Shown here piece by piece: positions 20,630 through 38,967 of a stretch of DNA of 64,000 bases. The stretch lies in NCBI GenBank assembly GCA_964587735.1, contig CAZPMB010000002.1, positions 1,736 to 65,735 of the forward strand. The letters run 5' to 3'. Below the pieces are notes generated by a model. The model had not been told where the DNA came from. It did not search any database and worked only from the letters and a program-made list of their open reading frames with translations. Numbering within the stretch: the stretch's first letter is position 1; every line of letters starts with the position of its first letter. The position numbers were made by a program, and so were the translations under genes. Source of the stretch: an uncultured Candidatus Bathyarchaeia archaeon (GTDB lineage: Archaea > Thermoproteota > Bathyarchaeia > TCS64).

Positions 20630-21118
20630 ATGGTACCCATAGATGCCGTTGTCGATATCAGCAAGTCGGATGCCCGCTTCCTCCGCAGGCTCGCCGCGGA
20701 GATGGGCGCTTCCGACCTGAGCAAGTGCTTCCAGTGCGGCGTCTGCGTCGCCAGCTGTCCCGTCAGGGAGATCGAGGCGGAGTTCAACCCCAGGCGGATC
20801 ATGAAGCTGGCGAAGCTCGGCCTGAAGGACATCGTCCTCGGGAGCGATTTCATCTGGCTGTGCTCCATGTGCTTCATGTGCCACGAGCGCTGCCCCCAGG
20901 ACGTAAGGCCGCCCGAGGTTATGACGGTCCTGAGGAACATCGCCGCGAAGGAGGGCATTGCGCCGCCTAACCTGATGAAGCTCGTCGAAGTGCTCTCCGA
21001 GAACGGGAGGGTCTACCCACTCGACGACTTTACGATGGACGAAAGGCAGGACAGGGATCTACCCGAGGTAGAGTCCAAACCAGGGTTCGTGATGAAGATA
21101 GCAGGGGCGGGGAAATGA
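20630..21118 (+). CDS. hdrC: Heterodisulfide reductase subunit C
   Basis: Two CxxCxxC...CP ferredoxin-like motifs (CFQCGVCVASCP, CSMCFMCHERCP). ATG at 20630 preceded by GGAAGGGGAGG. The track ORF starts upstream at 20498. Confidence 0.8.
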   Translation: MVPIDAVVDISKSDARFLRRLAAEMGASDLSKCFQCGVCVASCPVREIEAEFNPRRIMKLAKLGLKDIVLGSDFIWLCSMCFMCHERCPQDVRPPEVMTVLRNIAAKEGIAPPNLMKLVEVLSENGRVYPLDDFTMDERQDRDLPEVESKPGFVMKIAGAGK

Positions 21119-24431: not shown

Positions 24432-24876
24432 CTACTCCAGTTCTCGTTTGATCATCTTTATGAGCTTCGGCATAGCCACCTGAACCTTCTCAGTTAGATC
24501 GCTGCTGAACGACTCCACATCCTGGGCCTCAACGGCCAAGATCACGATCTTCCCCGGCATCTCATAGGGGTAAAGCTGCTTCCCCAGCTTCAATATGCCG
24601 GGGAGATTCAAGCCATGGGACTGGCCGAAATCGGACTCTACCAGCTCCTCGGGTTCCAGCCTGTGGATAGTCCCGGGTTCGGCGCCCGTCGTTGTTGCAT
24701 CGATGATGATGACCCTGTTTCGGTTCCTGATGTGGTCCAGTAGGTCGATATTCGCAGTGGAAAGGTCGACGGCATCGACCTCAGGCATCTCCTCCTTCAG
24801 GATCTTTACGACATGTATCCCAACGCCGTCGTCAGCCCGGAGGAGGTTGCCTATGCCAATGACCGCGTTCCTCAAC
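24432..24876 (-). CDS. Hydrogenase maturation endopeptidase (HycI/FrhD/HybD family)
   Basis: GIGNLLRADDGVG motif. Likely TTG start at 24876 overlapping the mvhA TGA stop (TTGA). The track ORF extends further upstream in frame. Confidence 0.75.
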
Positions 24877-26335
24877 TCAGGTTCCTTTCGAGCCTCTTGT
24901 ACAGACTGCCCCTGCTGTCGTAGATCTCCACAGCCAAGGGCATCTGGCCGGGAAGGCTGTGTGTTGAGCAGGCGAAGCATGGGTCGTATGCCCTGAAGGC
25001 CATCTCCACCTTGTTGAGGAGGCCCTCGCTCACCTTGCCTCCCTTGATGAGACCACTCGCGGCATCTCTAATAGACACGCAGATGGGCGCGTAGTTATTC
25101 GTGGTTGCTACTATCAGATTCGCCTTCTCCACGAGGCCCTCGCTGTCCAACTTGTAGTGGTGGTAAAGGGTACCCCTCGCTGCCTCGACTACGCCAACCC
25201 CTTCCCCGGGCTTCCCCACTGGGTTCCTCAGGCCCGTCCCCGTTATCTCCGGGTCGGTCGCTAGCTCTAGTGTCCGCTCCGTAGCGTAAAGCAACTCCAC
25301 AAGCCTCGCCCAGTGGAAGGCGAGGGTCGAGTTTACAGGCTTCCCGCCGAGGGTCTTGTACATTCGCTTGTACTCCTCGTCGGCGAGGGGCGTCGCCATG
25401 CCTTCGGCGGCGTTTAGCCTGCCGAGGGGACCGACGCGGTAGATTCCGCTGTCCTTGCCATCCTTCAGCCCCTTCCAGCCGACGTCCTTCAGGTAGGTGA
25501 ACTTCGAGTAAGTCCAGGGCTCCACGTGCTCGGAGATGTAATCGAGGTAGTCCTTCGCCTGGAACCTGTCGTGCTCCCTCCCCTTCTGGTCGGTCACGCG
25601 GATGTCCCCGTCGTAGAAGTTGACCCTGTTGTTCTCGTCGACGAGGCCCATGTTGTAGGTCTTTAGCTGATAGGGGTCGCTGAGGATCAGGTCAACGTAG
25701 CCCTTGTTCCCGAGGACAACGTCGTTGAACACTCTGAGGGTGAACCTTGCGAACTCGATGGAGGAGCGGGCCATCTCCTCTATCTCCTTCCTCTCCTCCT
25801 CGTTCAGCCCCTTCGAGACGCCTCCGGGGAGACCACTCGTCGGGTGGGTCGCCTTCCCGCCGAGGATCTCGATGACCCTCTGTCCATATGCCCTGTGCTT
25901 AATCACCTCCTTTCCGACATCGAGGCCTACCTTCTTCAGGACGCCGAATATGTTCCTCTCTGTTGGCGGGGCATCCGGCCCAACGACGAAGTCTGGGGCC
26001 CCCAGAAAGTAGAAGTGGAGAGTGTGATCGTAGACGTAATAGCCCGAGTACATCAACTCCCTGAGCTTCTTTGCCGTCGGCGTGGGCGCGACATCGTATG
26101 CTGCATCTAGGGCTTTTGTGGAGGCCATGTGGTGTGCCACCGGGCATACGCCGCAGATCCGTGGCGTTATGATGGGCATGTCCTCGGCCCTCCTACCCTC
26201 GCAGAAGCGTTCGAAGCCTCTCAGCTCGGGGACTTGTAGGTACGCGTTCTCGACGTTCCCCTCGTCATTGAGGAATATGGCGATCTTGCCGTGGCCCTCG
26301 AGCCTAGTTATCGGGTCTATGGTGACGGTCTTCAT
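24872..26335 (-). CDS. mvhA: [NiFe] hydrogenase large subunit, MvhA-like (F420-non-reducing type)
   Basis: N-terminal RICGVCPVAH (RxCGxC) and C-terminal DPCFACSTH (DPCxxCxxH) Ni-Fe ligand motifs. 487 aa. Confidence 0.85.
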   Translation of the reverse strand: MKTVTIDPITRLEGHGKIAIFLNDEGNVENAYLQVPELRGFERFCEGRRAEDMPIITPRICGVCPVAHHMASTKALDAAYDVAPTPTAKKLRELMYSGYYVYDHTLHFYFLGAPDFVVGPDAPPTERNIFGVLKKVGLDVGKEVIKHRAYGQRVIEILGGKATHPTSGLPGGVSKGLNEEERKEIEEMARSSIEFARFTLRVFNDVVLGNKGYVDLILSDPYQLKTYNMGLVDENNRVNFYDGDIRVTDQKGREHDRFQAKDYLDYISEHVEPWTYSKFTYLKDVGWKGLKDGKDSGIYRVGPLGRLNAAEGMATPLADEEYKRMYKTLGGKPVNSTLAFHWARLVELLYATERTLELATDPEITGTGLRNPVGKPGEGVGVVEAARGTLYHHYKLDSEGLVEKANLIVATTNNYAPICVSIRDAASGLIKGGKVSEGLLNKVEMAFRAYDPCFACSTHSLPGQMPLAVEIYDSRGSLYKRLERNLS

Positions 26336-27300
26336 CTTTTGATCCTCCTGTTCATGATGGCAACCGGGAGCCCGTATTTATAAAAGGTCCCGACAGGGTC
26401 CTTCAGCTGCGACATGAGCGCCTCGGGGTCGAAGCCCTCCTCCTTCTCCTCGGCGAGGCCCAGGACGGTCGAGAGGGCCGAGATCATCGCAGTCCCCTGC
26501 TCGATGGCCTCGGGGCAAGGGCCCCCACAGCCTGTACAGGGCATGTTGGCGTTCAGGCATCGGGACTCGCAGCCCCCCCTAGTGGCTGGACCCATGCAGA
26601 CGATGCCCTGCTCGAGGAGGCACTTCTCGGGCTCGGGTTCGAAGTCGATGATCCTCCTGATCCCGGCAACTTTCTTCTCCTCCCTGGTCCTAGGGCACTC
26701 GTCGCAGACCGACTTCTCAGGGGCTAGAACCGCACCCTTCGGCGGGAGGTTCCCACTCGCTATGGCCTGGACAGCCTCGACTATGAGCCCCGGCGCCGGA
26801 GGGCACCCCGGCAGATAGTAGTCCACGTCCACGACTTGGTCCAGCGCCATGACAGTGTCGTAGAACTCAGGGAGCGTGAGGGTTCCCTCCTTGGCTTCGA
26901 ACTTGGTCAGTGGGACAAGGTTCTTCTCATTCTCCGTAGAAGGCGACCGCAGGTAGGCCCTCTCGAATACCTCCTCCCGGTCGGCGACGTTGGCGAGCCC
27001 TGGAATGCCGCCCATGTGGGCGCATGAGCCGAAGGCGACGAGGGCCTTCGCCTTCCTCCTGAGCAGCTTGGCGAGGTGATCCTGCTCCTCTGTGCGCACC
27101 GCTCCGTTGAAGAAGCAGACATCCATGAAGCCATCCGGCATCGCCTCCACATCCTTGTATTTGACGTCCATCGCCACAGGCCAGAAGACTACTTCTGCTA
27201 TCTCCAAAACGTCGAGTATCTTCTCGTCGATGTCAAGGACGGCGATCTCACAGCCCCCGCAACTAGCAGCCCAGTAGAACCCGAACTTCAGCTTACCCAA
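26332..27300 (-). CDS. mvhG: [NiFe] hydrogenase small subunit, MvhG-like
   Basis: AASCGGCE proximal-cluster motif and multiple downstream Cys clusters. 322 aa. 4-nt overlap with mvhA. Confidence 0.8.
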   Translation of the reverse strand: MGKLKFGFYWAASCGGCEIAVLDIDEKILDVLEIAEVVFWPVAMDVKYKDVEAMPDGFMDVCFFNGAVRTEEQDHLAKLLRRKAKALVAFGSCAHMGGIPGLANVADREEVFERAYLRSPSTENEKNLVPLTKFEAKEGTLTLPEFYDTVMALDQVVDVDYYLPGCPPAPGLIVEAVQAIASGNLPPKGAVLAPEKSVCDECPRTREEKKVAGIRRIIDFEPEPEKCLLEQGIVCMGPATRGGCESRCLNANMPCTGCGGPCPEAIEQGTAMISALSTVLGLAEEKEEGFDPEALMSQLKDPVGTFYKYGLPVAIMNRRIKR

Positions 27301-27306
27301 ATAATA

Positions 27307-28164
27307 TCACTCCGTGAACTTCTGCAGCATTGAGGCATCGATCTTGTTGCTGTTGAACCCCAGATCGTCGTAGTCGATCCCGAGCGCCAGACCAAGCAGC
27401 TGCGGGTAGTGAACGATAGGCACGTTTGGGGGATTCTCCTGAATCAACTGGCACCTCTCGTATGTCAGGTAGCAGAACGGGCAGGCCGTGATCAGTATAT
27501 CCGCATACTTCTTTACAGTCTCCACCTTCTCAAGGCCGACGCTCCAGGTGACGGCCTCCCGGACTCCCATGATCGGCCCGGCGCAGCACTCCAGCTTGTT
27601 CGGGTAGGCGACGCTCTCCGCGCCAGTGACTTCTACGAGCTCGTCCAATGTTTTTGGTGCCTCTGGGTCGTCCTTGACCATGATGTCCGAGGGCTTCAGC
27701 ATGTGGCACCCATAGTGGGTTCCGACCCTCAGACCCTTCAGCGGCTGTGAAACCTGCGACCCGATCTTTTCTAGGCCTATGTCGTCCTTCAGCATCCTGG
27801 CGAAGTGCTTTACCTCCACCGTCCCCTTGAACTCCCTGCCGACGTCGGCGAGGACCTCATTGACCTCGGCCCTGAGCTTCGGGTCTTCCTTGAGCTCCTT
27901 GTTCGCCCTCATCAGGACCTCCGTGCAGCCGTTGCAGACCGTGACTATGTCTAGCTCCATCTCCTCCGCGATGCAGATGTTCCTTGCGGCGACGGCCAGC
28001 CCCGTATTGTGGTCCAAGGTCTCGAGGTATGTGGTGCCGCAGCAGCTCGAGCCTGGCATGTCCACCAGCTCGATACCCAGCCGCTCAGCGACCCTCCTCG
28101 TTGCCTTCTCGTATCCCCAGAGGCGGGCAAGGGTCGTGCAACCGGCGAAGAACGCGTACTTCAT
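27307..28164 (-). CDS. hdrB: Heterodisulfide reductase subunit B
   Basis: SSCCGTT and LECCAGP CCG motifs. MKYAFFAGCT start. Confidence 0.85.
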   Translation of the reverse strand: MKYAFFAGCTTLARLWGYEKATRRVAERLGIELVDMPGSSCCGTTYLETLDHNTGLAVAARNICIAEEMELDIVTVCNGCTEVLMRANKELKEDPKLRAEVNEVLADVGREFKGTVEVKHFARMLKDDIGLEKIGSQVSQPLKGLRVGTHYGCHMLKPSDIMVKDDPEAPKTLDELVEVTGAESVAYPNKLECCAGPIMGVREAVTWSVGLEKVETVKKYADILITACPFCYLTYERCQLIQENPPNVPIVHYPQLLGLALGIDYDDLGFNSNKIDASMLQKFTE

Positions 28165-28165
28165 C

Positions 28166-28678
28166 TCAGCCCTCCTCCACGAGGCCGAGGAAACCCGTCT
28201 TCCTCATTATCTTCTCGACCTCTTTGGCGTCTGGCTCGGGTGCGGGGGGCAGGTCCTCGTCCTCCCTCATCTCGTTCTGGAAGTCGTCTATCTCGTAGAT
28301 GTACCCAATCTCCGCCAGGGTGTTCATCAGCGCCCTGTGGGTCGGGTGGATTATCCCCCCCTTCACCGCCAGCTTCCGGAGCGCCGAGACTATCTCCGAG
28401 ATCCTAACCTGCTCCGGGCAGCGCTCGTAGCAGGTGTAGCACCCTGCGCAAAGCCACACGGTGTCGCCGACGAGCAGCCTTTCCTTCTGGCCGTAGATCG
28501 CTAGCCGCGCGATCTGCCTGGGCCTGAACGCCTCGACCCTCATGGCGATGGGGCAGTCGGCGGTACAGGTCCCACATTGGTAACAGAGCATCAGCTTCTC
28601 GGCGCCTGGTATCTGCATTAGGCGCTCCCTGAAGCCCTTGTCTGCCTGGGACATCCGGATCTCCTTACGCTCGGTCAA
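28166..28678 (-). CDS. hdrC: Heterodisulfide reductase subunit C
   Basis: CYQCGTCTADCP and CAGCYTCYERCP motifs. Confidence 0.8.
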   Translation of the reverse strand: MTERKEIRMSQADKGFRERLMQIPGAEKLMLCYQCGTCTADCPIAMRVEAFRPRQIARLAIYGQKERLLVGDTVWLCAGCYTCYERCPEQVRISEIVSALRKLAVKGGIIHPTHRALMNTLAEIGYIYEIDDFQNEMREDEDLPPAPEPDAKEVEKIMRKTGFLGLVEEG

Positions 28679-29121
28679 CTTACTCGCCCTCCGGCAGTGA
28701 TGACCTCCAACGGCCTTAGGGGGCTAGGTCCCAGCCTCTTCATGTCTGCGACCATCTCCTTCATCACTCGGGCAAATTTGTCCCCCTCCGCGGCAGAGAT
28801 CCATTCCAGCCTTAGACGTTCCGGCTCAAGCCCGAGCTGAGACATCAGCCTCTTCAGCATTGCGATCCGCCTCTTGGCCTTCAGATTACCGGTAATGTAG
28901 TGGCAGTCGTTGGGAGGGTGGCAGCCGGCGACTAACACTCCGTCTGCCCCGTCCCTGAACGCCTCCAAGATGAAGGCGGGGTGGACCCTCCCGCTACACA
29001 TCACCCTTATTACCCTTAGGTTTGGAGGGTACTGGAACCTGCTGACCCCGGCGAGGTCGGCCCCGGCGTAGCTGCACCAGTTGCAGAGGAACCCAACTAT
29101 CCTCGGCTCGAACTCGGTCAT
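28675..29121 (-). CDS. mvhD: MvhD (methyl-viologen-reducing hydrogenase delta subunit, [2Fe-2S])
   Basis: MTEFEPRIVGFLCNWCSYAGADLAG ... MCSGRV ... GCHPPNDCHY canonical MvhD cysteines. ATG at 29121 overlaps the stop of the upstream hdrA fusion (ATGA). Confidence 0.8.
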   Translation of the reverse strand: MTEFEPRIVGFLCNWCSYAGADLAGVSRFQYPPNLRVIRVMCSGRVHPAFILEAFRDGADGVLVAGCHPPNDCHYITGNLKAKRRIAMLKRLMSQLGLEPERLRLEWISAAEGDKFARVMKEMVADMKRLGPSPLRPLEVITAGGRVS

Positions 29122-32120
29122 GCCTTCACCTCCATGAGGGCGGCCCTCACCTGAGAGAGTATCTCGTCGTCCGTGAAGTGGCCGACCGTTATGGCCCCAG
29201 ACGGGCAAGTTGAGGCGCAGACACCGCAGCCCTTGCACAGCTCCTCTACGACGTGGGAGTGAACCTTACCCTCCTCCTCGACCATCTCGATGGCGTTGAA
29301 CTCGCAGACGCCTTCGCACATCCTGCAGCCTGAGCAGAAGTCCTCGTTAACGCTCGCAATGGCACCCTCCATCTCCAGCGTCTCTTTCGAAAGTATCGTC
29401 ATCGCTCTAGCGGCTGCACCGCAAGCCTGGCTTATGCTCTCGTCAATCGACTTCGGCCCGTGGGCCATCCCACAGAGGAAGACGCCGTCGGTGGCGAAGT
29501 CGAGGGGCCTCAGCTTCATGTGGGCCTCCAAGAAGAACCCATCCTTGCTGAGGGGTACCTTCAGAAGCCCTGCGATCCACCGGTTGTCGGGAGAGGGCAG
29601 GACCCCGGCGCTTAATACCACGGCCTCCGGCTCCATGATCACATTCTCTTTAAGTACCGGGTCCAAGACCTCGACTCTGAGACCGCTCTCTCTTGTGACC
29701 CGAGGCTTGTGCTCGTCATCGTACCGGATGAAGATGACGCCCTTCTTCGCGGCGTCCCTGTAGAAGTCCTCCTTGAATCCATAGGTACGCATGTCCTTGT
29801 AGAGGACGTAGATATCCGCGGCCGGGTTTACCTCCTTTACCTTGAGGGCGTTCTTCACGGCGTCGGTACAGCAGATCCTGGAGCAGTAAGGGCGCTCATC
29901 GCACCTGGAACCGACACACTGGATCATGACCACAGAGCTCGGTTTGAACCCATTCGCTAGTTTCTCCTCTAGCTCAAGCTGGGTCATCACATCCTCATCG
30001 GAGCCATAGAGGTACTCCTTGGGCTCGTACTCGACACCACCGGTGGCGATGACGACGACCCCGTGCTTGACCACCTCCTCGCCCTTCTTGCTGAGCAGCG
30101 TGGTCTCGAAGTTACCAATGTAGCCGCCCACGTCCTCCACCTTCGCGCCTAGGTGGACGTGGATCTTCTTGTTGCCCCTCACCCTGTTCACGAGCTCCCC
30201 CAGCTTCTTCTGAGGGTCAATTCCGCCAAGCGCGAATCTTAACCTCCTCAGGTTGCCACCTAGCTCGCTCTCCTTCTCCACGAGGTGGGTCTTAATGCCC
30301 TGCTCGGCGAGTTCGAGGGCCGCGGTCATGCCCGAGAGGCCCCCCCCAATTACTAGGGCTGCTGGGGTAACCTTGACCTGGGGCTTCTTCAGGGGCTGGA
30401 GGAGCCTGGCCTTGGCGACGGCCATCCTGACCAAGTCCTTCGCCTTCTGGGTGGCCTCCTCTGGCTCCCGCATATGGACCCAGCTGCACTGGTCCCTGAT
30501 GTTCGCCATCTCGAAAAGGTAGGGGTTCAGCCCCGCGTCTTGGAGGGTCGCCCTGAAGAGGGGCTCGTGGGTCCTCGGCGTGCATGAGGCCACTATTACC
30601 CGATTAAGCTTGTGCTCCAGTATCTTCTCCTTGATCTTCTCCTGAGTGTCCTGGGAGCAGGTGTAAAGGTTCCTCTCGGAGTACGCGACGCCGGGCAGGG
30701 TGCCTGCGTACTCTATGACCTCCGGAACGTTAACGACGCCTCCGATGTTGATGCCGCAGTGGCAGACGAAGACTCCAACTCTGGGCTCCTCGCCAGAGAT
30801 GTCCCTCTCGACGGGGTACTCCTCGCTCACAACGAGGGTGCCTCTCACAGAGGCGATCGCCCTCTCCGCCTTAGCTGCGGCCCCACTCGCCTGCGCAACG
30901 CTGTCGGGGATGTCCTTCGGAGAGGCGAATGCCCCGCACACGTAAACGCCTGGACAGGTCGTCTCCAACGGTGTGAAGAGCCCGGTCTTAGCAAATCCGT
31001 GCTCGTTGAGCTCGAAGCCAAGGACCTCGGAAAGCTTCCCAGCGTCTGCCGGTGGGTTCATTCCAACAGAGAGGACCACCATATTGAACCTCTCCCGCTT
31101 CACCTCGCCGTTCTCAACGTAAGTGACGAATAGGTCCTTGGTATCTGGGTCCTGGTCGGTGTGGGAGGCCCTGCTCCTGATGAACCTGACTCCGTGTTCC
31201 TCTTCTGCCCTGGCGTAGTAGTCGTCGAACTCCTTGCCAAAGGCGCGGACGTCCATGAAGAAGATTGAGGGCTTCAGCCCAGGGTTGTGCTCTTCGGCGA
31301 TGACAGCCTCCTTAATGGTGTACATGCAGCAGACGCCGCTGCAGTATGGGTTACCGACCCTCTCGTCCCTGCTGCCAACGCACTGTATAAAAGCAACCTT
31401 CTCAGGTAGCTCGCCATCGGATGGTCTTAGTACAACGCCCCGGTAGGGGCCAGTAGCGCTCAGGATGCGCTCGAACTCGATACTCGTCACGACGTTGGGG
31501 TACCGCCCATAGCCGTACTCTGTGACGATCCTCGGGTCGAACTCCTCAAAGCCGGGGGCGAGGATTATGGACCCGACCTCTAGCTCGACCTCTGAGTCCT
31601 CTTCATCGTAGCGGATAGCATTCGCCTTGCAGACCTCCTTACAGATGCCGCAGCCGAGGCACTTCTCCTTGTCGATAGTGAAGATGAGCGGCACCGCCTG
31701 GGAGTATCGGATGAAGACTCCCCTACGCTTGCTGAGGCCCTCGTTGTACTCGTCTATTGCCGAAGCGGGGCATTTCTGTGCGCAGATTGCGCACCCCGTG
31801 CATTTCTCGGGGTCTACCCTCATCGCCTTCTTTTTGAGAGTCGCCCTGAAGTCGCCCTCCTCCCCCTCCACACTCTTCAGCTCCGAGTAGGGCACGATCT
31901 GGATGTTCGGGTGCCTCCCGGCTCCTACGAGCTTCGGGGCGAGGATGCACATGGCGCAATCATTCGTTGGGAAGGTCTTGTCCAGCTGGGTCATTACCCC
32001 GCCGATGCTCGGCTCCTTCTCCACCAGATATACCTTGAATCCCGAGTCAGCCAGGTCCAGGCTCGCCTGTATGCCGGCTATGCCCCCACCGACGACCATC
32101 ACCGCACCGACTTTCCTCAT
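29118..32120 (-). CDS. hdrA: Tandem HdrA fusion: FAD-domain-only HdrA' fused in frame to a full-length HdrA (1000 aa)
   Basis: Two Rossmann FAD motifs (VVGGGIAGIQAS near the N-terminus; IGGGLSGMTAA near residue 580). The central VFVCHCGINIGG...CSWVH HdrA N-domain lies between them. The two halves are paralogous to the adjacent split pair at 34596..35918 and 32893..34593. Confidence 0.8.
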   Translation of the reverse strand: MRKVGAVMVVGGGIAGIQASLDLADSGFKVYLVEKEPSIGGVMTQLDKTFPTNDCAMCILAPKLVGAGRHPNIQIVPYSELKSVEGEEGDFRATLKKKAMRVDPEKCTGCAICAQKCPASAIDEYNEGLSKRRGVFIRYSQAVPLIFTIDKEKCLGCGICKEVCKANAIRYDEEDSEVELEVGSIILAPGFEEFDPRIVTEYGYGRYPNVVTSIEFERILSATGPYRGVVLRPSDGELPEKVAFIQCVGSRDERVGNPYCSGVCCMYTIKEAVIAEEHNPGLKPSIFFMDVRAFGKEFDDYYARAEEEHGVRFIRSRASHTDQDPDTKDLFVTYVENGEVKRERFNMVVLSVGMNPPADAGKLSEVLGFELNEHGFAKTGLFTPLETTCPGVYVCGAFASPKDIPDSVAQASGAAAKAERAIASVRGTLVVSEEYPVERDISGEEPRVGVFVCHCGINIGGVVNVPEVIEYAGTLPGVAYSERNLYTCSQDTQEKIKEKILEHKLNRVIVASCTPRTHEPLFRATLQDAGLNPYLFEMANIRDQCSWVHMREPEEATQKAKDLVRMAVAKARLLQPLKKPQVKVTPAALVIGGGLSGMTAALELAEQGIKTHLVEKESELGGNLRRLRFALGGIDPQKKLGELVNRVRGNKKIHVHLGAKVEDVGGYIGNFETTLLSKKGEEVVKHGVVVIATGGVEYEPKEYLYGSDEDVMTQLELEEKLANGFKPSSVVMIQCVGSRCDERPYCSRICCTDAVKNALKVKEVNPAADIYVLYKDMRTYGFKEDFYRDAAKKGVIFIRYDDEHKPRVTRESGLRVEVLDPVLKENVIMEPEAVVLSAGVLPSPDNRWIAGLLKVPLSKDGFFLEAHMKLRPLDFATDGVFLCGMAHGPKSIDESISQACGAAARAMTILSKETLEMEGAIASVNEDFCSGCRMCEGVCEFNAIEMVEEEGKVHSHVVEELCKGCGVCASTCPSGAITVGHFTDDEILSQVRAALMEVKA

Positions 32121-32896
32121 TCCGACACCTCCATCGCCGCGTAGATGGGAGAACTCCCTCGTATCTCTTGGACATCAACCCAGCCCAGCTGACGCATCGC
32201 CACTATATGTTCTAGGACCTTTTTGGAGTCAATGCCCAGCTTCTTCGAGAGCTCCTTGACCGAGGAGGGCTCTTGGAGAAGGGAGAGGCGGATCTTCTGG
32301 TGAACATACTCGCTTTCTAAGGCCTCGTCCATCACCTCGTCGAACTCGCCCTTCGCGACAGGCTCCCCATAGATGTTCCCTTCCTTGACGAGCTTCTCCT
32401 CCTTCCCCACAAGGGCCCTGAGCCTGTAGTTCTCAGCAGCAGCCTTCGCCGCCCTGAGGTTGAGAAGCAGCCCGGGGTCCGGTGAGTCGCCGGAGACAGA
32501 TGACGGGCCCAGCCCTCTGACCTTTTCTATGAAAGCTCCTACTTGGTCCGCGAACTTTTGACCCTCTGAGGCGAATATATACTCCAGAGCAAGCCTCTCG
32601 GGCTCGAAGCCTGCCTTCTCCAGTAGCCTCCTCGTAAAGTGGTACTTAGTTTCGACCTGCTCGTGGTTCCTGATGTAGTTGCAGCCGCCGAGTGTGCAAG
32701 TTGTGATCATGACGCCGTCGATCCCCTCCGAGAAGACCCTTAGCAGCATAGAGGGGTCAATCCTCCTACAACACATGACCCGGAGGAAGCGGATATTGGG
32801 GGGGTACTGGATCCTGCTGATCCCAGCCAGGTCGGCTACTGCATATCCGCAACAGTTGCACAGGAAACCTATCAGGCGCGGCTCGTACTCGGTCAT
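32117..32896 (-). CDS. MvhD domain fused to a C-terminal winged-helix-like domain
   Basis: N-terminal 135 aa is canonical MvhD (GFLCNCCGYAVADLAG, MCCRR, TCTLGGCNY). The C-terminal 120 aa carries SSVKELSKKLGIDSKKVLEHIVAMRQLGWV, which is HTH/wH-like. Confidence 0.7.
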   Translation of the reverse strand: MTEYEPRLIGFLCNCCGYAVADLAGISRIQYPPNIRFLRVMCCRRIDPSMLLRVFSEGIDGVMITTCTLGGCNYIRNHEQVETKYHFTRRLLEKAGFEPERLALEYIFASEGQKFADQVGAFIEKVRGLGPSSVSGDSPDPGLLLNLRAAKAAAENYRLRALVGKEEKLVKEGNIYGEPVAKGEFDEVMDEALESEYVHQKIRLSLLQEPSSVKELSKKLGIDSKKVLEHIVAMRQLGWVDVQEIRGSSPIYAAMEVSE

Positions 32897-34593
32897 TTTC
32901 CGGACCTCCCATCCACGGCGGCGAGGATCTGCGCCTCAAGCTGATCGTCAGTGAAGTGATGTATCGTTATGGCCCTCTCGGGGCAGCTTGCTGCACACAC
33001 GCCACAGCCACCGCAAAGGGAGCTATCGGCCCTCGAGATCCCGAGCTCGTCCTTGCGGATTGCGTTGTAGGGGCAGAGCTCTATGCAGATCCCACATCCG
33101 CTGCACTTCTTCTCGTCGATATCGGCGAAAGCCGCCCCCCTGCCTCGTCTGCGACTGAACCTGTTCTCCGCCGCCTTCGAACCGACGCCGAGCCCTTCGG
33201 ATATGCTCTCAACGGCGTCCTTAGGCGCCCGGGCGGTACCGCAAACGTAGACACCCTCTGTCGCGAAGTCTAGGGGACTCAGCTGGTGGGCCTCTTTAAA
33301 GAATCCGAAGGCGTCTAGGGGGAGCCTAAGCATCTCGGACATCTCCTGCGCCCCCTCTGCCGGCACAAGGGGTGTGGAAAGGACTACGAGGTCCGCGTTG
33401 AATTCCATCTCCTCGTTTATCGTTGGACTTAACACCCTGACCGCAACGCCTTCCTCACCTGGCGTCACAATGGGGGGCGTGTCGTCCTTGTACTTGATCA
33501 GCTTCACCCCTTTTCTCTTGGTGTTCAGCTCTAGAGCCGAGGACTCGATGCCGTAGGTCTGGAGGTCTTTGTATACGATGTAGATGTCCGTGTCCCTGCT
33601 CAGATCCCTGAGGATCTGGGCGTTTTTGAGGGCCGTGTTGCAGCAGATCCTCGAACAGTATGGACGCTCCTCACAGCGGGAGCCTGCGCACTGGATCATC
33701 ACAACCGTACGGACCCCGTCCAAGCTCCCGTTCTTCAGCATCTCCTCGAGTTCAAGCTGAGTTATTATCCTCTCGTCCCTACCATAACCATAAAGGCCCT
33801 TGGGTCTGAGTATGTCCGATCCTGTAGCCACGATAATCCTGCCCACGTTGAAGGCCCTCTTTTCAGCCCCCTTTGACTCGACCTCGATGTCGAAGCTGCC
33901 GATGGCTCCTGTTACGGATTTAACCCTCGATGATTTGTGGACCTCGATGTTCGGATTGTTCTCCACCGACCTGAGTAAGTGCTCAAGGACCTCGGAGCTG
34001 TCCCTCATCGTGGGGGAGAGCTTGTGAAGGCTCTTGAGCATACCGCCGAGCTCCGCTTGCTTCTCGACGAGGTGAACGTGGAACCCGAGGTCCGCCAGTG
34101 AGAGCGATGACGACATTCCCGATATCCCACCGCCCATCACGAGGACGTTCGGGTTCTGCTTTACCTCCGGGTCCTCCCAAGGGCTCAGAAGGCGGGCCTT
34201 TGCCACGGCCATCCTCACGAGGCCCTTCGCCTTATCCGTTGCCTTCCCTGGCTCCTCCCTGTGTACCCAGCTGCACTGCTCACGGATATTCGCCATCTCA
34301 ACGAGGTACTTGTTCAAGCCAGCCCTATTGAGGGCCGACTGGAATACAGCCTCGTGGGTCCTCGGCGTACATGCTGCTACGACGACCTTCTCAAGGTTAT
34401 TCTTCCTGATGGCGTCTTCGATCCTCTCTAGCCCGGTTGTCGAGCAAGCAAAGGCGTTCTCTTCGATATGGGCCACCCCAGGAATGCCCTTAGCATACTC
34501 GACCAGTTCGGGCACATCAACTACTCCGCCAATGTCTTTACCACACCGGCAGACGAATACGCCGACCCGTGGACTTGCGACGTTCTCTGACAT
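32893..34593 (-). CDS. hdrA: Heterodisulfide reductase subunit A (full length: N-domain, FAD domain, ferredoxins)
   Basis: VGVFVCRCGKDIGG...CSWVH N-domain, MGGGISGMSS FAD motif, C-terminal CSGCGICIELCP/CGGCGVCAASCP. Confidence 0.85.
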   Translation of the reverse strand: MSENVASPRVGVFVCRCGKDIGGVVDVPELVEYAKGIPGVAHIEENAFACSTTGLERIEDAIRKNNLEKVVVAACTPRTHEAVFQSALNRAGLNKYLVEMANIREQCSWVHREEPGKATDKAKGLVRMAVAKARLLSPWEDPEVKQNPNVLVMGGGISGMSSSLSLADLGFHVHLVEKQAELGGMLKSLHKLSPTMRDSSEVLEHLLRSVENNPNIEVHKSSRVKSVTGAIGSFDIEVESKGAEKRAFNVGRIIVATGSDILRPKGLYGYGRDERIITQLELEEMLKNGSLDGVRTVVMIQCAGSRCEERPYCSRICCNTALKNAQILRDLSRDTDIYIVYKDLQTYGIESSALELNTKRKGVKLIKYKDDTPPIVTPGEEGVAVRVLSPTINEEMEFNADLVVLSTPLVPAEGAQEMSEMLRLPLDAFGFFKEAHQLSPLDFATEGVYVCGTARAPKDAVESISEGLGVGSKAAENRFSRRRGRGAAFADIDEKKCSGCGICIELCPYNAIRKDELGISRADSSLCGGCGVCAASCPERAITIHHFTDDQLEAQILAAVDGRSGK

Positions 34594-34595
34594 AA

Positions 34596-35918
34596 TCAGC
34601 CCCCCCGACCTCCTGTTGCGATTCGGATGTCACTGACTGCCTTCAGCGCCACGGCACTCGCCTCGGTCACCGAGTCGGAGATGTCCCTGGGCCCATGGCT
34701 GCAGCCGCAGACGTAAATCCCCTCCCTAGTGGTCTCCAGGGGACCGAGAAATGGGTCCTCGACCCTAAAAAAGCCAAACTCATCCAAATCAACGCCTAAG
34801 GCTCCAGCGAGCCTGACGTTCTCGAACCTTGGGAGAACAGCAGCCGAGAGGATGGCCATGTCTACCTCCTTCCTCCCTATCTCACCGGTGTCGGTGTTCT
34901 CGTACCAGACGTACAGGTCCTTCGTGATGGGGTTCTCCCTGATCTCTCCGGGCTTGCCCCTGATGTAATCTACGCCGAGCTCATCCCGGGCCCTGTTGAC
35001 GAGACCCTGATAGTCCCTGCCAAAGGCTTTGACGTCTATGTAGAAGACATAAATCTCAGAGCTTGGGTACTTCTCCTTCACCGTGACCGCCTCCTTGGCC
35101 GTGTACATGCAGCATATGCCCGAGCAATAGGGGACGCCCACTCCTTCCCTGTGGCTCCTAGAGCCTACGCATTGGACAAAGGCCACCCTCTTGGCGAGCT
35201 TTCCATCCGACGGGCGCTCCAGCTCGCCGCCTGTGGGACCATACGGAGAGATGAGTCTCTCGAACTCTAGGGATGTGATCACGTTCTCGTACCGGTTATA
35301 CCCGTATTCCCCCATCTCCGTAGGGTCGTACTGCTGAAAACCTGTGGCGATGATGATAGAGGAGGCGTTAAGTGTACTCACCCTCACGCCCTCCTCCAAC
35401 CTGATGGCGTCGACCGGGCAGGCCTTCTCACAGGCCCTGCAGCCGCCGCCCTTGAAGTGATTGCAGGCCCCCTCATCTATTGAGGGCGCGTAGGGAACCG
35501 CCTGGGGAAACGGGATGTAGACGGCCTTCCGGGACTCGAACCCCGTCTGGAAATCGTCAGGGACGGTGGCAGGGCAGATCTCGACGCAGGTACCGCACCT
35601 TGTGCACCTAGATGGGTCTACGTGTCTCGGCCTCTGGACAACCCTCACTGCGAAGCGCCCTTTCGAGCCGTCGACGTCGACGACCTCTGATAGGGTGTGA
35701 ACCTCTATGTTGGGATGCCTATAGCACTCGATCATCTTGGGCTCTAGGATGCAGATGCAGCAGTTCATGGTGGGGAAGGTCTTGTCCAGCTGCGCCATGA
35801 CGCCCCCGACGTAGGGGGCCTTCTCTACGATGTGGACATGGATCCCCTGGTTCGCCAGGCTGAGGGATGCCTGCAGGCCGGCCACGCCCCCGCCTATCAC
35901 TAAGACGCTCCCTTCCAA
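34596..35918 (-). CDS. HdrA-like FAD/ferredoxin protein lacking the HdrA N-terminal Cys domain (HdrA')
   Basis: Starts directly at VLVIGGGVAGLQAS (FAD). Has an inserted 2x[4Fe-4S] ferredoxin (CTRCGTCVEICP; CRACEKACP). 440 aa. Paralogous to the first half of the 1000-aa fusion. Confidence 0.8.
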   Translation of the reverse strand: MEGSVLVIGGGVAGLQASLSLANQGIHVHIVEKAPYVGGVMAQLDKTFPTMNCCICILEPKMIECYRHPNIEVHTLSEVVDVDGSKGRFAVRVVQRPRHVDPSRCTRCGTCVEICPATVPDDFQTGFESRKAVYIPFPQAVPYAPSIDEGACNHFKGGGCRACEKACPVDAIRLEEGVRVSTLNASSIIIATGFQQYDPTEMGEYGYNRYENVITSLEFERLISPYGPTGGELERPSDGKLAKRVAFVQCVGSRSHREGVGVPYCSGICCMYTAKEAVTVKEKYPSSEIYVFYIDVKAFGRDYQGLVNRARDELGVDYIRGKPGEIRENPITKDLYVWYENTDTGEIGRKEVDMAILSAAVLPRFENVRLAGALGVDLDEFGFFRVEDPFLGPLETTREGIYVCGCSHGPRDISDSVTEASAVALKAVSDIRIATGGRGG

Positions 35919-35920
35919 CG

Positions 35921-36802
35921 CTACCCCTCCAGTACCTTCTCTAGCACGAAGTCTATCGGGCTTAGGTTCAGGTCGAGCCCAAGCTTCTCTGGCCCAAGCC
36001 CCATTGCGAGGCCAAGCAGCTGTGTATAATAGAATACCGGTACCTCTAGGGACCTGTCCCCCATTGCTGCTTGAATTGCCCTCTGCCTGTTGTCGAAGAC
36101 CTTAAAGCAGAATGGGCAGACGGTGACAAGGCCATCGAACCCGAACTTCCTTACGGACTGGAGCTTCTCCCCTGCGATGAGAAGTGTGGTCTTTCCTGAG
36201 GCAATCGCCAAAGATGAGCCGCAGCAGTCGGTTTTCTCTGGGTAATCCATCACATCGGAGCCGAGGGCTCTCATCAGGTCATCGAGCTTCTGGGGGTTCT
36301 CCGGGTCGTCCGTATGCTTCAGCTCCCCGCCCCTTATTGCGTGGCAGCCAGGATGGGTCGCGAACTTCAGGCCCTTTATTGGCCTGATCACGCTGGCTCC
36401 TATCGTGTCGACTCCTACGATGTCGTGAAGGATCTCAAGTATGTGTACTATTCTCACGCTCCCCGTGTATGTCAGCCCTTCCTTTTTCAGATCCTTATTG
36501 ATGGAATCCCTAGTCCTCGGGTTGACCTCAAGGTGGTGTTTGGTCTCCGCGAAGGACATGTGGCAACCATTGCAGAGGGGGAAGAGATCCAGTCTTAGGC
36601 CTTCCGCGATCGCCATGTTTCGCGCTGAGAGATAGTACCAAGCCGACGGGTAAACGCTGCTGAATGCCGGGAACCCGCAGCAGCTGGTCCCCTCCATGTC
36701 GACAAGCTCGACGCCGATCCTGGGCAGCACCTCCCTGACCGAGGCCTCGTATCCGAACTGCTCAGTCTGAACTGTGCAACCCGGATAAAACGCGTACTTC
36801 AA
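35921..36802 (-). CDS. hdrB: Heterodisulfide reductase subunit B
   Basis: TSCCGFP and TDCCGSS CCG motifs. Confidence 0.85.
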   Translation of the reverse strand: MKYAFYPGCTVQTEQFGYEASVREVLPRIGVELVDMEGTSCCGFPAFSSVYPSAWYYLSARNMAIAEGLRLDLFPLCNGCHMSFAETKHHLEVNPRTRDSINKDLKKEGLTYTGSVRIVHILEILHDIVGVDTIGASVIRPIKGLKFATHPGCHAIRGGELKHTDDPENPQKLDDLMRALGSDVMDYPEKTDCCGSSLAIASGKTTLLIAGEKLQSVRKFGFDGLVTVCPFCFKVFDNRQRAIQAAMGDRSLEVPVFYYTQLLGLAMGLGPEKLGLDLNLSPIDFVLEKVLEG

Positions 36803-36814
36803 TACCAGACCCTC

Positions 36815-37327
36815 CTATGAAAGCTTCTTCAGGTTCTCGTGGAACGCTTCCATGTCCTTAGGCTTCTCCACTGGGGGCAGCCCAAGAGACTTCCTGTCGT
36901 GCCTGCCGCCCTTCCTGGCCCGGACCTGCTGGGGCTCGCCGGAAATCCCTTTCTCCACGACGGTCCTGATGAAGTCATCGTAGCCTGAGGGGTGCTCGTA
37001 GCCCGCCCGGTACGCCAGAGTTCTGAGCACCAGTATAACGTCGTAGGGGGAGATCTGCTCGGGGCACCTCTCCTTGCACTTTAGGCAGGAGGTACAGGTC
37101 CATAGCAACTCCGACTTGAGGAGCTCCCCCAACTTCCCGAGGGAGACCTTCGAGATGAGCTGACGGGGGTTGAACCCTTCGATGTACTTCGACACGGGGC
37201 ACGCTGAGGAGCACTTGCCGCACTGGTCACACACCTCGGCAGTCTCGCTCACGGCCCTCTGGAGCAGTGTGGTGATGAACTCTTCCTGCTGATCCCTGAT
37301 CTCGCCCAAACTAGGTCCCTGTTTCAC
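36815..37327 (-). CDS. hdrC: Heterodisulfide reductase subunit C
   Basis: CDQCGKCSSACP and CTSCLKCKERCP motifs. First gene of the 12-gene minus-strand operon. Confidence 0.8.
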   Translation of the reverse strand: MKQGPSLGEIRDQQEEFITTLLQRAVSETAEVCDQCGKCSSACPVSKYIEGFNPRQLISKVSLGKLGELLKSELLWTCTSCLKCKERCPEQISPYDVILVLRTLAYRAGYEHPSGYDDFIRTVVEKGISGEPQQVRARKGGRHDRKSLGLPPVEKPKDMEAFHENLKKLS

Positions 37328-37597
37328 TCTTTTTAAAAGGAATTTTCATTAAATATGCAAAAATGAATGTTTTTAACAATCATCAGGCACTTCCCGCGAC
37401 TCTTCTTACCTCCTTGCCGGGTGAATTTAAATCTTACCTGATAGCAGAAAGAATTAAATTCGACTTTTATAGTGATTATTTCATAACAAAATAAAAAAAG
37501 ATAATGTATGTAACATGATGATCAATCTTGAAGGGAATGTTTTTTTTATAGTATCTAGAGTAAATAACCAGTAAATTCTCGGGGTGGATGAAGCGGC
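37328..37597. promoter_or_regulatory. 270-bp AT-rich divergent promoter region between the two hdr operons, with candidate TATA boxes on both strands and GAATT(T)AAAT(T)C-like repeated motifs
   Basis: GC far below the genome average. TTTTTATA at 37543..37550 about 48 nt upstream of the plus hdrC. ctttttaaaagg/attaaatatg near the minus hdrC start. gaatttaaatc (37423..37433) and near-palindromic gaattaaattc (37451..37461). Confidence 0.5.
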
Positions 37598-38080
37598 ATG
37601 GTTACGTCGAGGGAGCTCTTAAGCAGGTTAGTCGACGAGAAAAAGCTCACCTACTGCGAAAATTGCGGTATGTGCACTGCCAGCTGCCCCCTCGCTAGGG
37701 CGATCCCAGAGATCTACAACCCAAGAGTTCTTCTGCAGAGGGTGATCTTCGATCTGGACGAACTCATCAAGAGCGAGGAGTTCTGGCTGTGCGCATGGTG
37801 CTACAGATGCACGGAGAGATGCCCCCAGGGCATACAGCCGACAGAGATATTCCTCCTCACCAGGAACTTTGCGGTGGAGAAAGGACACGTGCCGAACAAC
37901 CCCAAGGCGATCATGAGGGAGATCATAAGATCAGGTAGATCGATACCCGTCTTCGAGGACTTCGACGACTGGCGGGAGGACTATGGCTTGCCCCCGATCG
38001 GACCCACCATCTCGAAGGAAGCCCTGGAGGAGCAGAGGAAGATAATGGGAGAAGAGTTCTTGAGGAGGCTACAGGGTTGA
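37598..38080 (+). CDS. hdrC: Heterodisulfide reductase subunit C
   Basis: CENCGMCTASCP and CAWCYRCTERCP motifs. GGGGTGGA Shine-Dalgarno-like sequence upstream. Confidence 0.8.
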   Translation: MVTSRELLSRLVDEKKLTYCENCGMCTASCPLARAIPEIYNPRVLLQRVIFDLDELIKSEEFWLCAWCYRCTERCPQGIQPTEIFLLTRNFAVEKGHVPNNPKAIMREIIRSGRSIPVFEDFDDWREDYGLPPIGPTISKEALEEQRKIMGEEFLRRLQG

Positions 38081-38967
38081 GCCTGGATTACCTACTTTAT
38101 CCAGGGTGCGTCGCCTCAGTGAGGGAACTCGGCTACGAGATCTCCATGAGGAGGGTCTTTGAAGCCCTAGATATAGGGTTGAAAAAATCCAACGATTTCA
38201 ACTGCTGCATGCCGGCCTGCCTCGTCCACAGCTTCGATTACAAGAGGGGGCTCGCCCTCACGTCGAGGAACCTATGCATCGCGGGCGAGTTCGATATGCC
38301 ACTGCTGACCCTCTGCTCGAGCTGCTTCGGCAACCTCTCGAGGGCCAAATACCTACTCGACACAAACGATGACCTAAGGAGGGACGTTAACGACATTCTC
38401 GGCGAGGTTGGAAGAGAGTATAAGAGCGGCGTGAGGGTGGAACAGGTCATAACGGCGCTCTATAAAGATTATACAGTTAAGAAGCTCAAGAGAATGATCG
38501 GGTCTCCCCTTAAAAAGGTGAAGGCTGCACCCTTCTACGGCTGCCATATATTCCTCCCGGGCCGTTACACCAAGTTCGATGACTCCGAGTTTCCAAAGAA
38601 CCTCGATAGTCTGATAAGAGTCACAGGTGCGGAAAGCGTGGACTACCATGAGAAGACCAGCTGCTGCATAGGTTGTGGCTCTTTCTTTGGGGAGTTATCC
38701 GAGAAGGCATCAGTCATACTCGCCGAGACAATACTCGAAAGCGCAAGCAAAGTGAGTGCTGACTGCATCATAACCACGTGCCCCTTCTGCATCATGCAGC
38801 TGGAGATGGGCCAGATCCGCCTAAAGACTGAGAAGGGGGTAGATTACAGGATGCCGGTGATGCATTACGTAGATCTCCTCGGCCTCTCTATGGGGTTGAG
38901 TGCAAAGGAACTCGGTTTGGACATTCGAAGATCGGACATGAACCCCTTTCTGTCTAAAATTAACTGA
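38077..38967 (+). CDS. HdrB-like protein with degenerate CCG motifs (HdrB2-like variant)
   Basis: HdrB fold and length, but the two CCG signatures read FNCCMPAC and TSCCIGCG instead of CCG. YPGC...CSSC and FYGC...CPFC framework retained. Confidence 0.75.
   Translation: MSLDYLLYPGCVASVRELGYEISMRRVFEALDIGLKKSNDFNCCMPACLVHSFDYKRGLALTSRNLCIAGEFDMPLLTLCSSCFGNLSRAKYLLDTNDDLRRDVNDILGEVGREYKSGVRVEQVITALYKDYTVKKLKRMIGSPLKKVKAAPFYGCHIFLPGRYTKFDDSEFPKNLDSLIRVTGAESVDYHEKTSCCIGCGSFFGELSEKASVILAETILESASKVSADCIITTCPFCIMQLEMGQIRLKTEKGVDYRMPVMHYVDLLGLSMGLSAKELGLDIRRSDMNPFLSKIN

Follow-up and report, generated by a model that had tools for sequence, protein, structure and literature searches.

What does an archaeon build when it places two sets of heterodisulfide reductase (Hdr) genes next to one [NiFe] hydrogenase? 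This question is raised by a 64-kb stretch of DNA from a Bathyarchaeia archaeon (here called the window), in which 12 genes on the minus strand, extending over ~13 kb from position 37327 to 24432, encode HdrA-, HdrB- and HdrC-type proteins, MvhD-type adaptors and the hydrogenase subunits MvhG and MvhA. HdrA-type flavin-based electron bifurcation is central to the energy conservation of anaerobes, and 'MvhADG-HdrABC' is routinely invoked for the H2 metabolism of Bathyarchaeia and Asgard archaea, including in hydrogen-based models of eukaryogenesis, without inspection of what these loci encode; papers on Bathyarchaeia list just 'HdrABC/MvhADG', with the heterodisulfide unknown (PMC7886697). The reading that we favor, with confidence somewhat above even, is that the operon encodes two intact, anciently diverged units of a [NiFe]-hydrogenase-linked HdrA-type bifurcating (or confurcating) system, which would be co-transcribed and docked into one supercomplex on the single hydrogenase.

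Mapping of open reading frames (ORFs) together with Pfam and NCBIfam scans recovered every gene that a first-pass annotation had listed, at the same positions and in the same order, namely hdrC1-hdrB1-hdrA'-hdrA-mvhD::wH-hdrA'A fusion-mvhD-hdrC2-hdrB2-mvhG-mvhA-protease, and chance is excluded for the family assignments because their E-values run from 1e-23 to 0. The operon opens with hdrC1 (36815-37327; 170 amino acids (aa) from a GTG start), whose product has two CxxCxxCxxxCP motifs and scores 84 bits against TIGR03290 (cut-off 160), followed by hdrB1 (35921-36802; 293 aa) with two CCG domains (PF02754, 1.3e-25; TIGR03288, 241 bits at a cut-off of 345). Next come hdrA' (34596-35918; 440 aa) and hdrA (32893-34593; 566 aa), the gene for a long adaptor, mvhD::wHTH (32117-32896; 259 aa; PF02662, 1.9e-39, plus weak HTH matches), named for its winged helix-turn-helix (wHTH, or wH for the winged helix), and the fused hdrA'A (29118-32120; 1000 aa). 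The short adaptor gene mvhD (28675-29121; 148 aa from the ATG at 29121; PF02662, 1.4e-55) leads to a second pair, hdrC2 (28166-28678; 170 aa; TIGR03290, 113 bits) and hdrB2 (27307-28164; 285 aa; TIGR03288, 295 bits, cut-off again 345). The operon is completed by the small and large [NiFe] hydrogenase subunit genes mvhG (26332-27300; 322 aa; PF01058, 3.5e-26; VhuG, 218 bits, 1e-64) and mvhA (24872-26335; 487 aa; VhuA, 1e-123), and by the gene for a HycI-type hydrogenase maturation endopeptidase (24432-24875; 147 aa; TIGR00072, 1e-36).

The tight packing with start-stop overlaps is likewise borne out. Read from 5' to 3', the junctions measure +12, +2, +2, -4, -4, -4, -4, +1, +6, -4 and -4 nucleotides (nt), with ATGA overlaps at the fourth to sixth and the tenth junction and TTGA overlaps at the seventh and the eleventh; specifically, the ATG of mvhD overlaps the stop codon of the fusion (ATGA), and the protease starts with a TTG at 24875 that overlaps the stop codon of mvhA. 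A GGAGG-like motif lies 5-14 nt 5' of most internal genes. The first gene, hdrC1, has no upstream GGAGG and carries the element ATATTTAA ~26 nt before its start, a pattern that would fit an archaeal operon whose first gene is leaderless. Short metagenome contigs that carry an identical MvhA furthermore come with independent gene calls, which place the boundaries of hdrB2, mvhG and mvhA at the same positions and give the same 147-aa protease with the same start. Exact-sequence look-ups of the fusion and of the EMG1 protein of the window gave no contig. Terminator-like sites are rarer than in shuffled sequence (10 versus 13.3), with only one weak site inside the operon on its own strand, and T-rich sequence directly follows the stop codon of the last gene, the protease. 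We infer from this layout that 37327 to 24432 is one co-transcribed operon. A sigma-70 promoter scan was set aside as uninformative for an archaeon, and scans for tRNA and Rfam families gave no match, so that the window offers neither an RNA feature nor a taxonomic marker.

The first step toward an answer lies in the HdrA proteins, which were aligned with one another and with the HdrA chain of PDB entry 8RVU (8rvu_a). HdrA' consists of a TrxR domain, which binds flavin adenine dinucleotide (FAD), with an inserted 2x[4Fe-4S] ferredoxin domain and the pair Cys53-x2-Cys56, and it matches positions 141-558 only of the HdrA2 model. HdrA has an N-terminal FeS domain, a FAD domain that is devoid of both the inserted ferredoxin and the Cys-x2-Cys pair, and a C-terminal 2x[4Fe-4S] ferredoxin domain. 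The fusion repeats this division of labor in one chain: residues 1 to ~440 are HdrA'-like and keep the FAD motif, the Cys-x2-Cys pair (Cys55/Cys58, the equivalents of methanogen Cys194/Cys197) and the inserted 2x[4Fe-4S] domain, and residues ~441-1000 are HdrA-like, with the N-domain, Lys756 and the C-terminal ferredoxin and with neither the Cys pair nor the inserted domain. The complementary loss between the halves thereby holds for the split pair and the fusion alike. The fusion, whose two TrxR FAD domains are marked by GGGIAG (residues 11-16) and GGGLSG (592-597), finds its best PDB sequence matches in HdrA chains (~1e-215) and has three HdrA stretches that match 5odc_A; it is 45% and 48% identical to the members of the split pair. 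The cluster-binding motif CxGSR...YCSxxCC is retained throughout the four FAD domains, and so are the Lys and the Glu between which the flavin lies in the methanogen enzyme, with Lys275 and Glu221 present in HdrA' and Lys270 and Lys756 of the fusion lying in a CC(x4)K motif.

The canonical single four-domain HdrA polypeptide is therefore not the form inside the operon. Judged by the alignment, HdrA' and HdrA are one asymmetric HdrA pseudo-dimer, and the fusion is the same pair joined (type II, BamE-like). Because the domains are distributed in a complementary manner, each A'/A set contains one copy of every element that is doubled in the canonical homodimer, and the complementarity of the halves also implies one complete bifurcation circuit per pseudo-dimer. 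What had been counted as extra HdrA copies are thus two equivalents of one homodimer each, one split and one fused. A heterodimer logic of this kind has been proposed for the tandem and fused HdrA of anaerobic methanotrophic (ANME) archaea (PMC9012536), type II HdrA has been formalized as a fusion of A6 and A12 (PMC12054007), and BamE of the class II benzoyl-CoA reductase (BCRII) is a fused HdrA dimer in which only the FAD of the N-terminal unit bifurcates, with Cys59/62 and Lys280 (preprint 10.64898/2026.04.10.717634).

Is the split between hdrA' and hdrA real, and are both units still working? The stop codon of hdrA' is directly preceded by a homopolymer, G7 (34594-34610, minus strand), which with a single G more would bring hdrA' and hdrA into one frame, so that the two genes might be a frameshifted fusion, and one duplicated module might be redundant or in decay. 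The first of these candidates was rejected. A junction of stop codon, GGAGG Shine-Dalgarno motif and ATG is kept in 15 checked loci, and because stop codons and frames differ between them, the split must be regarded as real. The same 15 genomes speak against decay, as does the state of the cofactor sites in every operon copy. Specifically, all four HdrB proteins of the neighborhood keep the 10 Cys of the two CCG motifs, all four HdrC proteins keep their 8 Cys, MvhD and MvhD::wH keep the 5 Cys that are shared with crystallized MvhD, and the translation of mvhA shows the NiFe motifs RICGVCPVAHH and DPCFACSTH together with a 28-aa cleavable C-terminal tail. The ratio of nonsynonymous to synonymous substitution rates (dN/dS; Nei-Gojobori) is 0.05-0.35 for all 12 operon genes against orthologues in four loci, and 0.055-0.09 for hdrA', hdrA and mvhD::wH in the least saturated comparison, with locus L008. 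The paralogues, furthermore, are only 32-48% identical, which indicates that the duplications are ancient and have been retained. Both operon units are intact and under purifying selection, the decay that the first-pass annotation had named as a possible objection to its proposal was not observed, and a decaying copy is hardly credible. The G7 run could, as a separate matter, be a natural route between split and fused forms.

How unusual is this arrangement? The fusion was scanned against one genome per species, which yielded at least 592 encoding stretches, and the best 80 loci were used for synteny, with all of their ORFs classified against the proteins of the window. These 80 loci are mostly from Bathyarchaeia (64-82% identity to the fusion), and they include Thermoplasmata/Methanomassiliicoccales and Asgard archaea (Promethearchaeota) at 54-61% as well as a few records labelled bacterial. 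A Bathyarchaeon is accordingly the most likely source of the window. A gene-neighborhood search had been proposed as a check, and the order does recur: all 12 genes are found in L001 and L009, the former being colinear with the window at the nucleotide level (72% over 12.7 kb), and in L005, L007 and L011 the order is kept as far as the contig or assembly reaches. The core hdrC-hdrB-hdrA'-hdrA-mvhD::wH-fusion-mvhD is present in at least 15 Asgard loci, and the Thermoplasmata-type loci L031-L034 read hdrA'-hdrA-mvhD::wH-fusion(-mvhD::wH-fusion)-mvhD, followed by mvhG-mvhA-protease. The most extreme array among the loci, L030 (Methanomassiliicoccales CP070739.1, 4325-21361), alternates four fused hdrA genes with mvhD::wH and ends on a plain mvhD, with no hdrCB pair in the locus. 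Since the layout recurs in Bathyarchaeia, Asgard and Thermoplasmata loci, it is conserved and widespread, and the first-pass view of an exceptional locus does not hold. Multiple fused HdrA and hdrA-frhD(mvhD) tandems have also been noted in Asgard and TACK genomes (PMC11237513; PMC11227280).

As an aside on these records, L001 (DATLAV010000190.1) was deposited as Patescibacteria and L009 (DATKWN010000035.1) as a Krumholzibacteriaceae metagenome-assembled genome (MAG), with fusions that are 74-82% identical to that of the window at the amino acid level; both are probably mis-binned Bathyarchaeia contigs.

The 80 loci also reveal a rule for the long adaptor. A fused hdrA follows mvhD::wH directly in 71 of 73 cases, and in 79 cases the gene before the plain mvhD is a fused hdrA. 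The gene in front of mvhD::wH is of the HdrA566 type in 34 cases, a fusion in 16 (plus three partial ones) and an apparent small ferredoxin in 17. Fifteen of these 17 turned out to be the C-terminal 2x[4Fe-4S] domain of a ~580-aa GltD/NfnB-like flavoprotein (Fer4_20 plus Pyr_redox_2), and on this ground a small ferredoxin and a remnant of hdrA were both rejected as interpretations. In sister Bathyarchaeia, the GltD/NfnB-like flavoprotein of NAD(P)H type fills the slot of hdrC1-hdrB1-hdrA'-hdrA, and the downstream order fusion-mvhD-hdrC-hdrB-mvhG-mvhA-protease is unchanged. (The loci with a GltD/NfnB-like gene upstream of mvhD::wH are L010, L013-L016, L018, L020-L022, L024, L026, L028, L029, L041 and L002.) By these neighbor counts, the long adaptor MvhD::wHTH nearly always sits between a fused HdrA and a flavoprotein that closes with an HdrA-type C-terminal ferredoxin domain, and the rule as a whole runs from this flavoprotein over MvhD::wHTH and the fused HdrA to MvhD.

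What, then, is the long adaptor? At 259 aa versus 148 aa for the short MvhD, it has an extension of >100 aa; its MvhD [2Fe-2S] domain (residues 1-134) is connected through a helical linker, which is conserved (~140-208), to an ArsR/SmtB-like winged helix (~210-255). A search at E<=1e-10 gave 848 homologues, of which the full-length matches that rank highest are ~252-271 aa long. An AlphaFold2 model built from 40 homologues reached a predicted local distance difference test score (pLDDT) of 87.7 and a predicted template modeling score (pTM) of 0.86, and in Foldseek searches with this model, residues 1-132 matched 5odc_D (TMt 0.84) and the C-terminus matched NolR, CzrA and HlyU. The cluster is accompanied by Cys, and there is no in-frame TGA.

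The C-terminal fold might suggest a role of MvhD::wHTH in transcription, namely as a redox sensor whose [2Fe-2S] domain would control an ArsR-type DNA-binding domain and which would autoregulate the operon. The structural matches to the ArsR/SmtB repressors NolR, CzrA, HlyU and BigR are compatible with this idea, as are homologues with HTH_20 and HTH_5 Pfam matches and the source annotations that, in some cases, read 'predicted transcriptional regulator'. The setting of the gene and the conservation of the protein nonetheless argue for another role. Specifically, mvhD::wH is joined by ATGA overlaps to catalytic genes on both sides, and up to four tandem copies alternate with fused HdrA in L030. 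The most conserved residues of the extension (A149, A150, K151, R158, R160, E166 and Y176) lie in the linker and not in the recognition helix, and the linker carries a net charge of -6 and the wH domain of only +1. In five Thermoplasmata-type loci (L031-L034 and L039), furthermore, the linker and winged helix (residues 146-255) form a separate ORF of ~125 aa between the plain mvhD and mvhG, and this fission supports a role of the extension as a subunit of the complex. BamF provides the closest precedent: an MvhD adaptor >100 aa over the usual length, whose winged helix-turn-helix contacts the input subunit BamI (preprint 10.64898/2026.04.10.717634), so that the same kind of motif is employed as a protein-protein interface. 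Taken together, a function in transcription seems very unlikely. Neither a stand-alone wH-extension ORF nor a GltD-like gene was found when the 64-kb window was searched for them.

With these parts in hand, the favored reading can be stated as a path of electrons. The hydrogenase core, unit 2, would comprise the fused A'A, the short MvhD, HdrC2B2, MvhGA and the protease. By comparison with 5ODC and BCRII, H2 would be oxidized at MvhA, and MvhG would hand the electrons on to the C-terminal ferredoxin domain and MvhD, from which they would reach the FAD in the A' half, where the bifurcating flavin can be placed by analogy with BamE. The high-potential branch would then lead from the adjacent [4Fe-4S] cluster over HdrC2 and HdrB2 to a disulfide, not necessarily that of coenzymes M and B (CoM-S-S-CoB). 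The low-potential branch would lead from the Cys pair and the N-domain cluster over the inserted ferredoxin domain to ferredoxin. Unit 1 would be a two-polypeptide version of this device, made of HdrC1B1, the split pair A' and A, and the long MvhD::wHTH. That the adaptor keeps its position across loci suggests a docking of unit 1 on the fused unit by way of the linker and winged helix, such that both units would use the single hydrogenase or exchange electrons. The reaction may also run backwards, as H2-evolving confurcation, a role that has reportedly been proposed for MvhADG-HdrABC in Asgard archaea.

A broader version of this model, which we hold only tentatively, treats MvhD::wHTH as a general coupler that wires an exchangeable upstream flavoprotein onto a fused HdrA core, with the present operon combining two bifurcation sites and one hydrogenase in one supercomplex. 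The upstream flavoprotein would in each case end in an HdrA-type C-terminal ferredoxin domain, and the candidates for it are a further HdrA pseudo-dimer equipped with HdrBC of its own, one more fused HdrA, and a GltD/NfnB-like NAD(P)H enzyme. The two bifurcations might operate in series or in parallel, for instance by re-bifurcation to lower potentials, or they might balance H2, ferredoxin and two different disulfides, and chains of such modules would be what the tandem arrays represent, which reach four units in L030.

Do the two units really exchange electrons, or are they two independent enzymes that are merely co-transcribed? In the latter case, unit 2 would be self-sufficient and the adaptor of unit 1 would bind another donor module encoded elsewhere, for example an F420- or NAD(P)H-dependent one. 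The Asgard loci give this possibility substance, as the neighbors of the core there are not mvhGA but an AsrAB/HydBG-like module that binds NAD(P), together with two FrhB-like genes, and so does BCRII, in which the wHTH of BamF touches the donor module BamI and not another HdrA. Across loci, moreover, the identity of MvhD::wH to that of the window follows the upstream HdrA and not the downstream fusion. (In three of the Asgard loci, L045, L048 and L054, one FrhB-like gene sits between hdrB and hdrA', and an actin gene lies near in L045.)

Several further findings weigh against the favored reading. Between L008 and the window, hdrA'-hdrA-mvhD::wH is 88-94% identical, with a synonymous divergence (dS) of 0.5-0.7, and the flanks (hdrC1B1 and fusion-hdrC2B2) are 63-74% identical with a dS >=1. 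This mosaic suggests cassette exchange between Bathyarchaeia lineages; hdrA'-hdrA-mvhD::wH thereby behaves as a cassette that is inherited apart from its flanks, which is equally compatible with an independent enzyme, and L008 is, furthermore, without the short mvhD. The number of hdrCB pairs per A'A unit also varies by lineage, with one per two units in Asgard archaea and none near the four units of L030, and a fixed stoichiometry is thus not conserved. Finally, the second FAD of the fusion does not show the BamE-type loss of Lys, as Lys756 stands where BamE has Gln768, and the second half may therefore carry a second active flavin.

Independence of the two enzymes nevertheless has to contend with the genes themselves. 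No second donor gene (FrhB-like, GltD-like or for a separate wH protein) was found in the 64-kb window, 4-nt overlaps flank mvhD::wH on both sides, and a fused HdrA that follows MvhD::wH in 71 of 73 cases, in several phyla, would be unusual for unrelated enzymes. We therefore regard two uncoupled enzymes as a serious but rather improbable alternative. In our view, the best reading remains that of a core unit linked to the hydrogenase, into which another Hdr unit would be plugged through MvhD::wHTH. As such, the earlier proposal of two HdrABC-like modules on one [NiFe] hydrogenase survives insofar as two HdrC/B/A/MvhD sets do stand beside one mvhGA; the sharing of the hydrogenase would be a further step, and synteny points to a core unit with an exchangeable second module.

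Which disulfide would such a system reduce? The best family matches of HdrB and HdrC are models of CoB-CoM heterodisulfide reductase, and Mcr is encoded in some Bathyarchaeia (cited in PMC7886697), which leaves room for a canonical methanogen-type system, in which CoM-S-S-CoB would be the substrate of the HdrBC pairs of a Bathyarchaeon with Mcr, and the duplicated copies would be isoenzymes. The scores, however, fall below the NCBIfam equivalog cut-offs throughout (HdrB 241-295 versus 345, HdrC 84-113 versus 160, HdrA-type 485-1029 versus 1100), the same core operon is present in Asgard archaea and in some records labelled bacterial, and the Hdr substrate of non-methanogenic Bathyarchaeia is regarded as unknown in the literature (PMC7886697). 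No match to mcr or to families of CoM/CoB biosynthesis was obtained among the ORFs scanned in the 64-kb window. Together with the scores under the equivalog cut-offs, this makes it probable that the substrate is not CoM-S-S-CoB, and a methanogen-type system is in our judgment unlikely.

The operon does not stand alone. Upstream of it, across an AT-rich intergenic region of 270 bp (37328-37597) with a guanine-plus-cytosine (GC) content of 31% versus ~58% for the window, lies the divergent pair hdrC3 (37598-38080, plus strand; 160 aa; TIGR03290, 112 bits) and hdrB3 (38077-38967, plus strand; 296 aa; TIGR03288, 250 bits), which is also present in L005 and L011. The intergenic region carries TATA-like elements on both strands (ATATTTAA on the minus and TTTTATAG on the plus strand) and is, as far as such patterns can tell, a putative bidirectional archaeal promoter. 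This pair had been described as the third of the locus, and it is indeed there; the count, though, has to be raised, as the hdrCB pairs of the neighborhood are four in number and its HdrA proteins are of three types. The fourth module, hdrC4-hdrB4-hdrA4 (20498-24313, plus strand), is convergent with the operon and was absent from the first-pass annotation. It comprises hdrC4 (20498-21118; up to 206 aa, with a true start that may be an internal Met near 20630; Fer4_8 and Fer4_17 matches), hdrB4 (21115-21990; 291 aa; PF02754, 8.3e-26) and hdrA4 (21983-24313; 776 aa; HdrA2 model, 777 bits). HdrA4 is the sole canonical four-domain HdrA in the neighborhood, with N-domain and Cys-x2-Cys, and is fused to an MvhD-like domain. 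As this domain has lost four of the five cysteines of the [2Fe-2S] region (FYDDNISY versus FLCNWCSY), it probably binds no cluster.

Genes for [NiFe] maturation, which had likewise been missed, adjoin the Hdr/Mvh genes. By Pfam, these are hypC (14346-14618) and hypD (14642-15718) on the plus strand and hypF (15713-18049) and hypE (18107-19120) on the minus strand, followed by a Mrp/NUBPL FeS carrier gene (19673-20410, plus strand); hypA and hypB were not seen. With the hyp genes included, the Hdr/Mvh neighborhood spans ~24.6 kb.

Elsewhere in the window, 11 kb from the nearest hdr gene, a group of genes at 5324-9509 encodes a DUF763 protein, two radical-SAM proteins and an LplA/B-type lipoate-protein ligase, and may be a lipoylation set of LipS1/LipS2 type. 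In the sHdr systems of sulfur oxidizers, lipoate-binding proteins work with Hdr-like enzymes. The ~2 kb at 9670-11800 contain short ORFs only (60-184 aa), none of them above the Pfam gathering cut-off, one with weak zinc-ribbon-like matches, and gave no RNA family match. At 54000-62000, the GC fraction drops to 0.48-0.51 versus ~0.58 elsewhere, and glycosyltransferase, radical-SAM and spermine-synthase-domain genes suggest that this may be an acquired surface-polysaccharide region.

What do these results change? All parts of the system are of known kinds (Mvh/Hdr, type II and tandem HdrA, a BamF-like adaptor), and such loci are already present in public MAGs. Two aspects were not found described in the literature that was searched: the tandem of a split and a fused pseudo-dimer with long and short MvhD, two HdrBC pairs and one hydrogenase, and the rule by which a long adaptor links an exchangeable C-terminal-ferredoxin flavoprotein to a fused HdrA core. 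The locus shows that the common form behind 'MvhADG-HdrABC' in Bathyarchaeia and Asgard archaea is not the methanogen enzyme but a modular system, in which asymmetric HdrA pseudo-dimers are combined with MvhD adaptors of two classes. A testable hypothesis of how bifurcation modules plug together is provided by the synteny rule, and the system would be of high interest should the two units prove to be electrically coupled.

How does the operon compare with known systems? In QmoABC of sulfate reducers, QmoA resembles HdrA' (a FAD domain without N- and C-terminal domains), QmoB resembles HdrA plus MvhD, and QmoC has an HdrC-like domain. The HdrC proteins of the window differ from QmoC in their length of 160-206 aa and in having no membrane HdrE-like domain, NCBIfam qmoC matches reach 45-71 bits versus a cut-off of 300, and no aprAB is adjacent. 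With MvhADG-HdrABC (5ODC; 8RVU, 7BKB), the window shares the group-3-type [NiFe] hydrogenase MvhA/G with its protease, the MvhD [2Fe-2S] adaptor, the 2x[4Fe-4S] HdrC, the HdrB with two CCG noncubane-cluster motifs, and the FAD and FeS domains of HdrA. The differences are that HdrA is a complementary split pair or a fusion instead of a four-domain homodimer; that the operon combines a single mvhGA with two units, adaptors of two types and hdrCB in two pairs, with further hdrCB pairs nearby; that the subunits, including the VhuA, VhuG and TIGR00072 matches, score below the equivalog cut-offs; and that the host is a Bathyarchaeon. The tandem and fused HdrA of ANME archaea (HdrA3/4, 5/6 and 12/13 of PMC9012536; type II of PMC12054007) also have an adjacent MvhD gene. 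In HdrA3/4, however, the N-domain unit comes first, whereas the Cys-bearing unit comes first in the window and in BamE; the partners there are FdhB and an inactive molybdopterin protein rather than MvhGA, and a split-plus-fused tandem with long and short MvhD is not described in those papers.

The comparison with BCRII of Geobacter metallireducens rests on the published description, as BamE and BamF were absent from the PDB copies that were searched. BCRII differs in its donor side, since the window is without the BamB/C tungsten module and BamGHI and has a [NiFe] hydrogenase as donor, and no match to AOR-family or NuoEFG/HydABC-like families was seen among the ORFs scanned in the window. The adaptor of the window has Cys where BamF has selenocysteine, the second FAD domain has Lys756 in place of the Gln768 of BamE, and in the window the long adaptor follows the split pair and the short MvhD the fusion. 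Shared with BCRII are, however, the fused HdrA dimer with a Cys-x2-Cys- and Lys-bearing FAD in the N-half (Cys55/58 and Lys270 in the window, Cys59/62 and Lys280 in BamE), the MvhD-type adaptor gene that follows the fused gene, an adaptor that is >100 aa longer and carries a winged helix-turn-helix, and, in BamD, an HdrBC-like protein. The recent BCRII structure is the sole structural precedent for the proposed plugging together of modules, and if the synteny rule is confirmed, the 'hierarchical coupling of bifurcation modules' would extend from a specialized bacterial enzyme to a widespread archaeal hydrogenase system.

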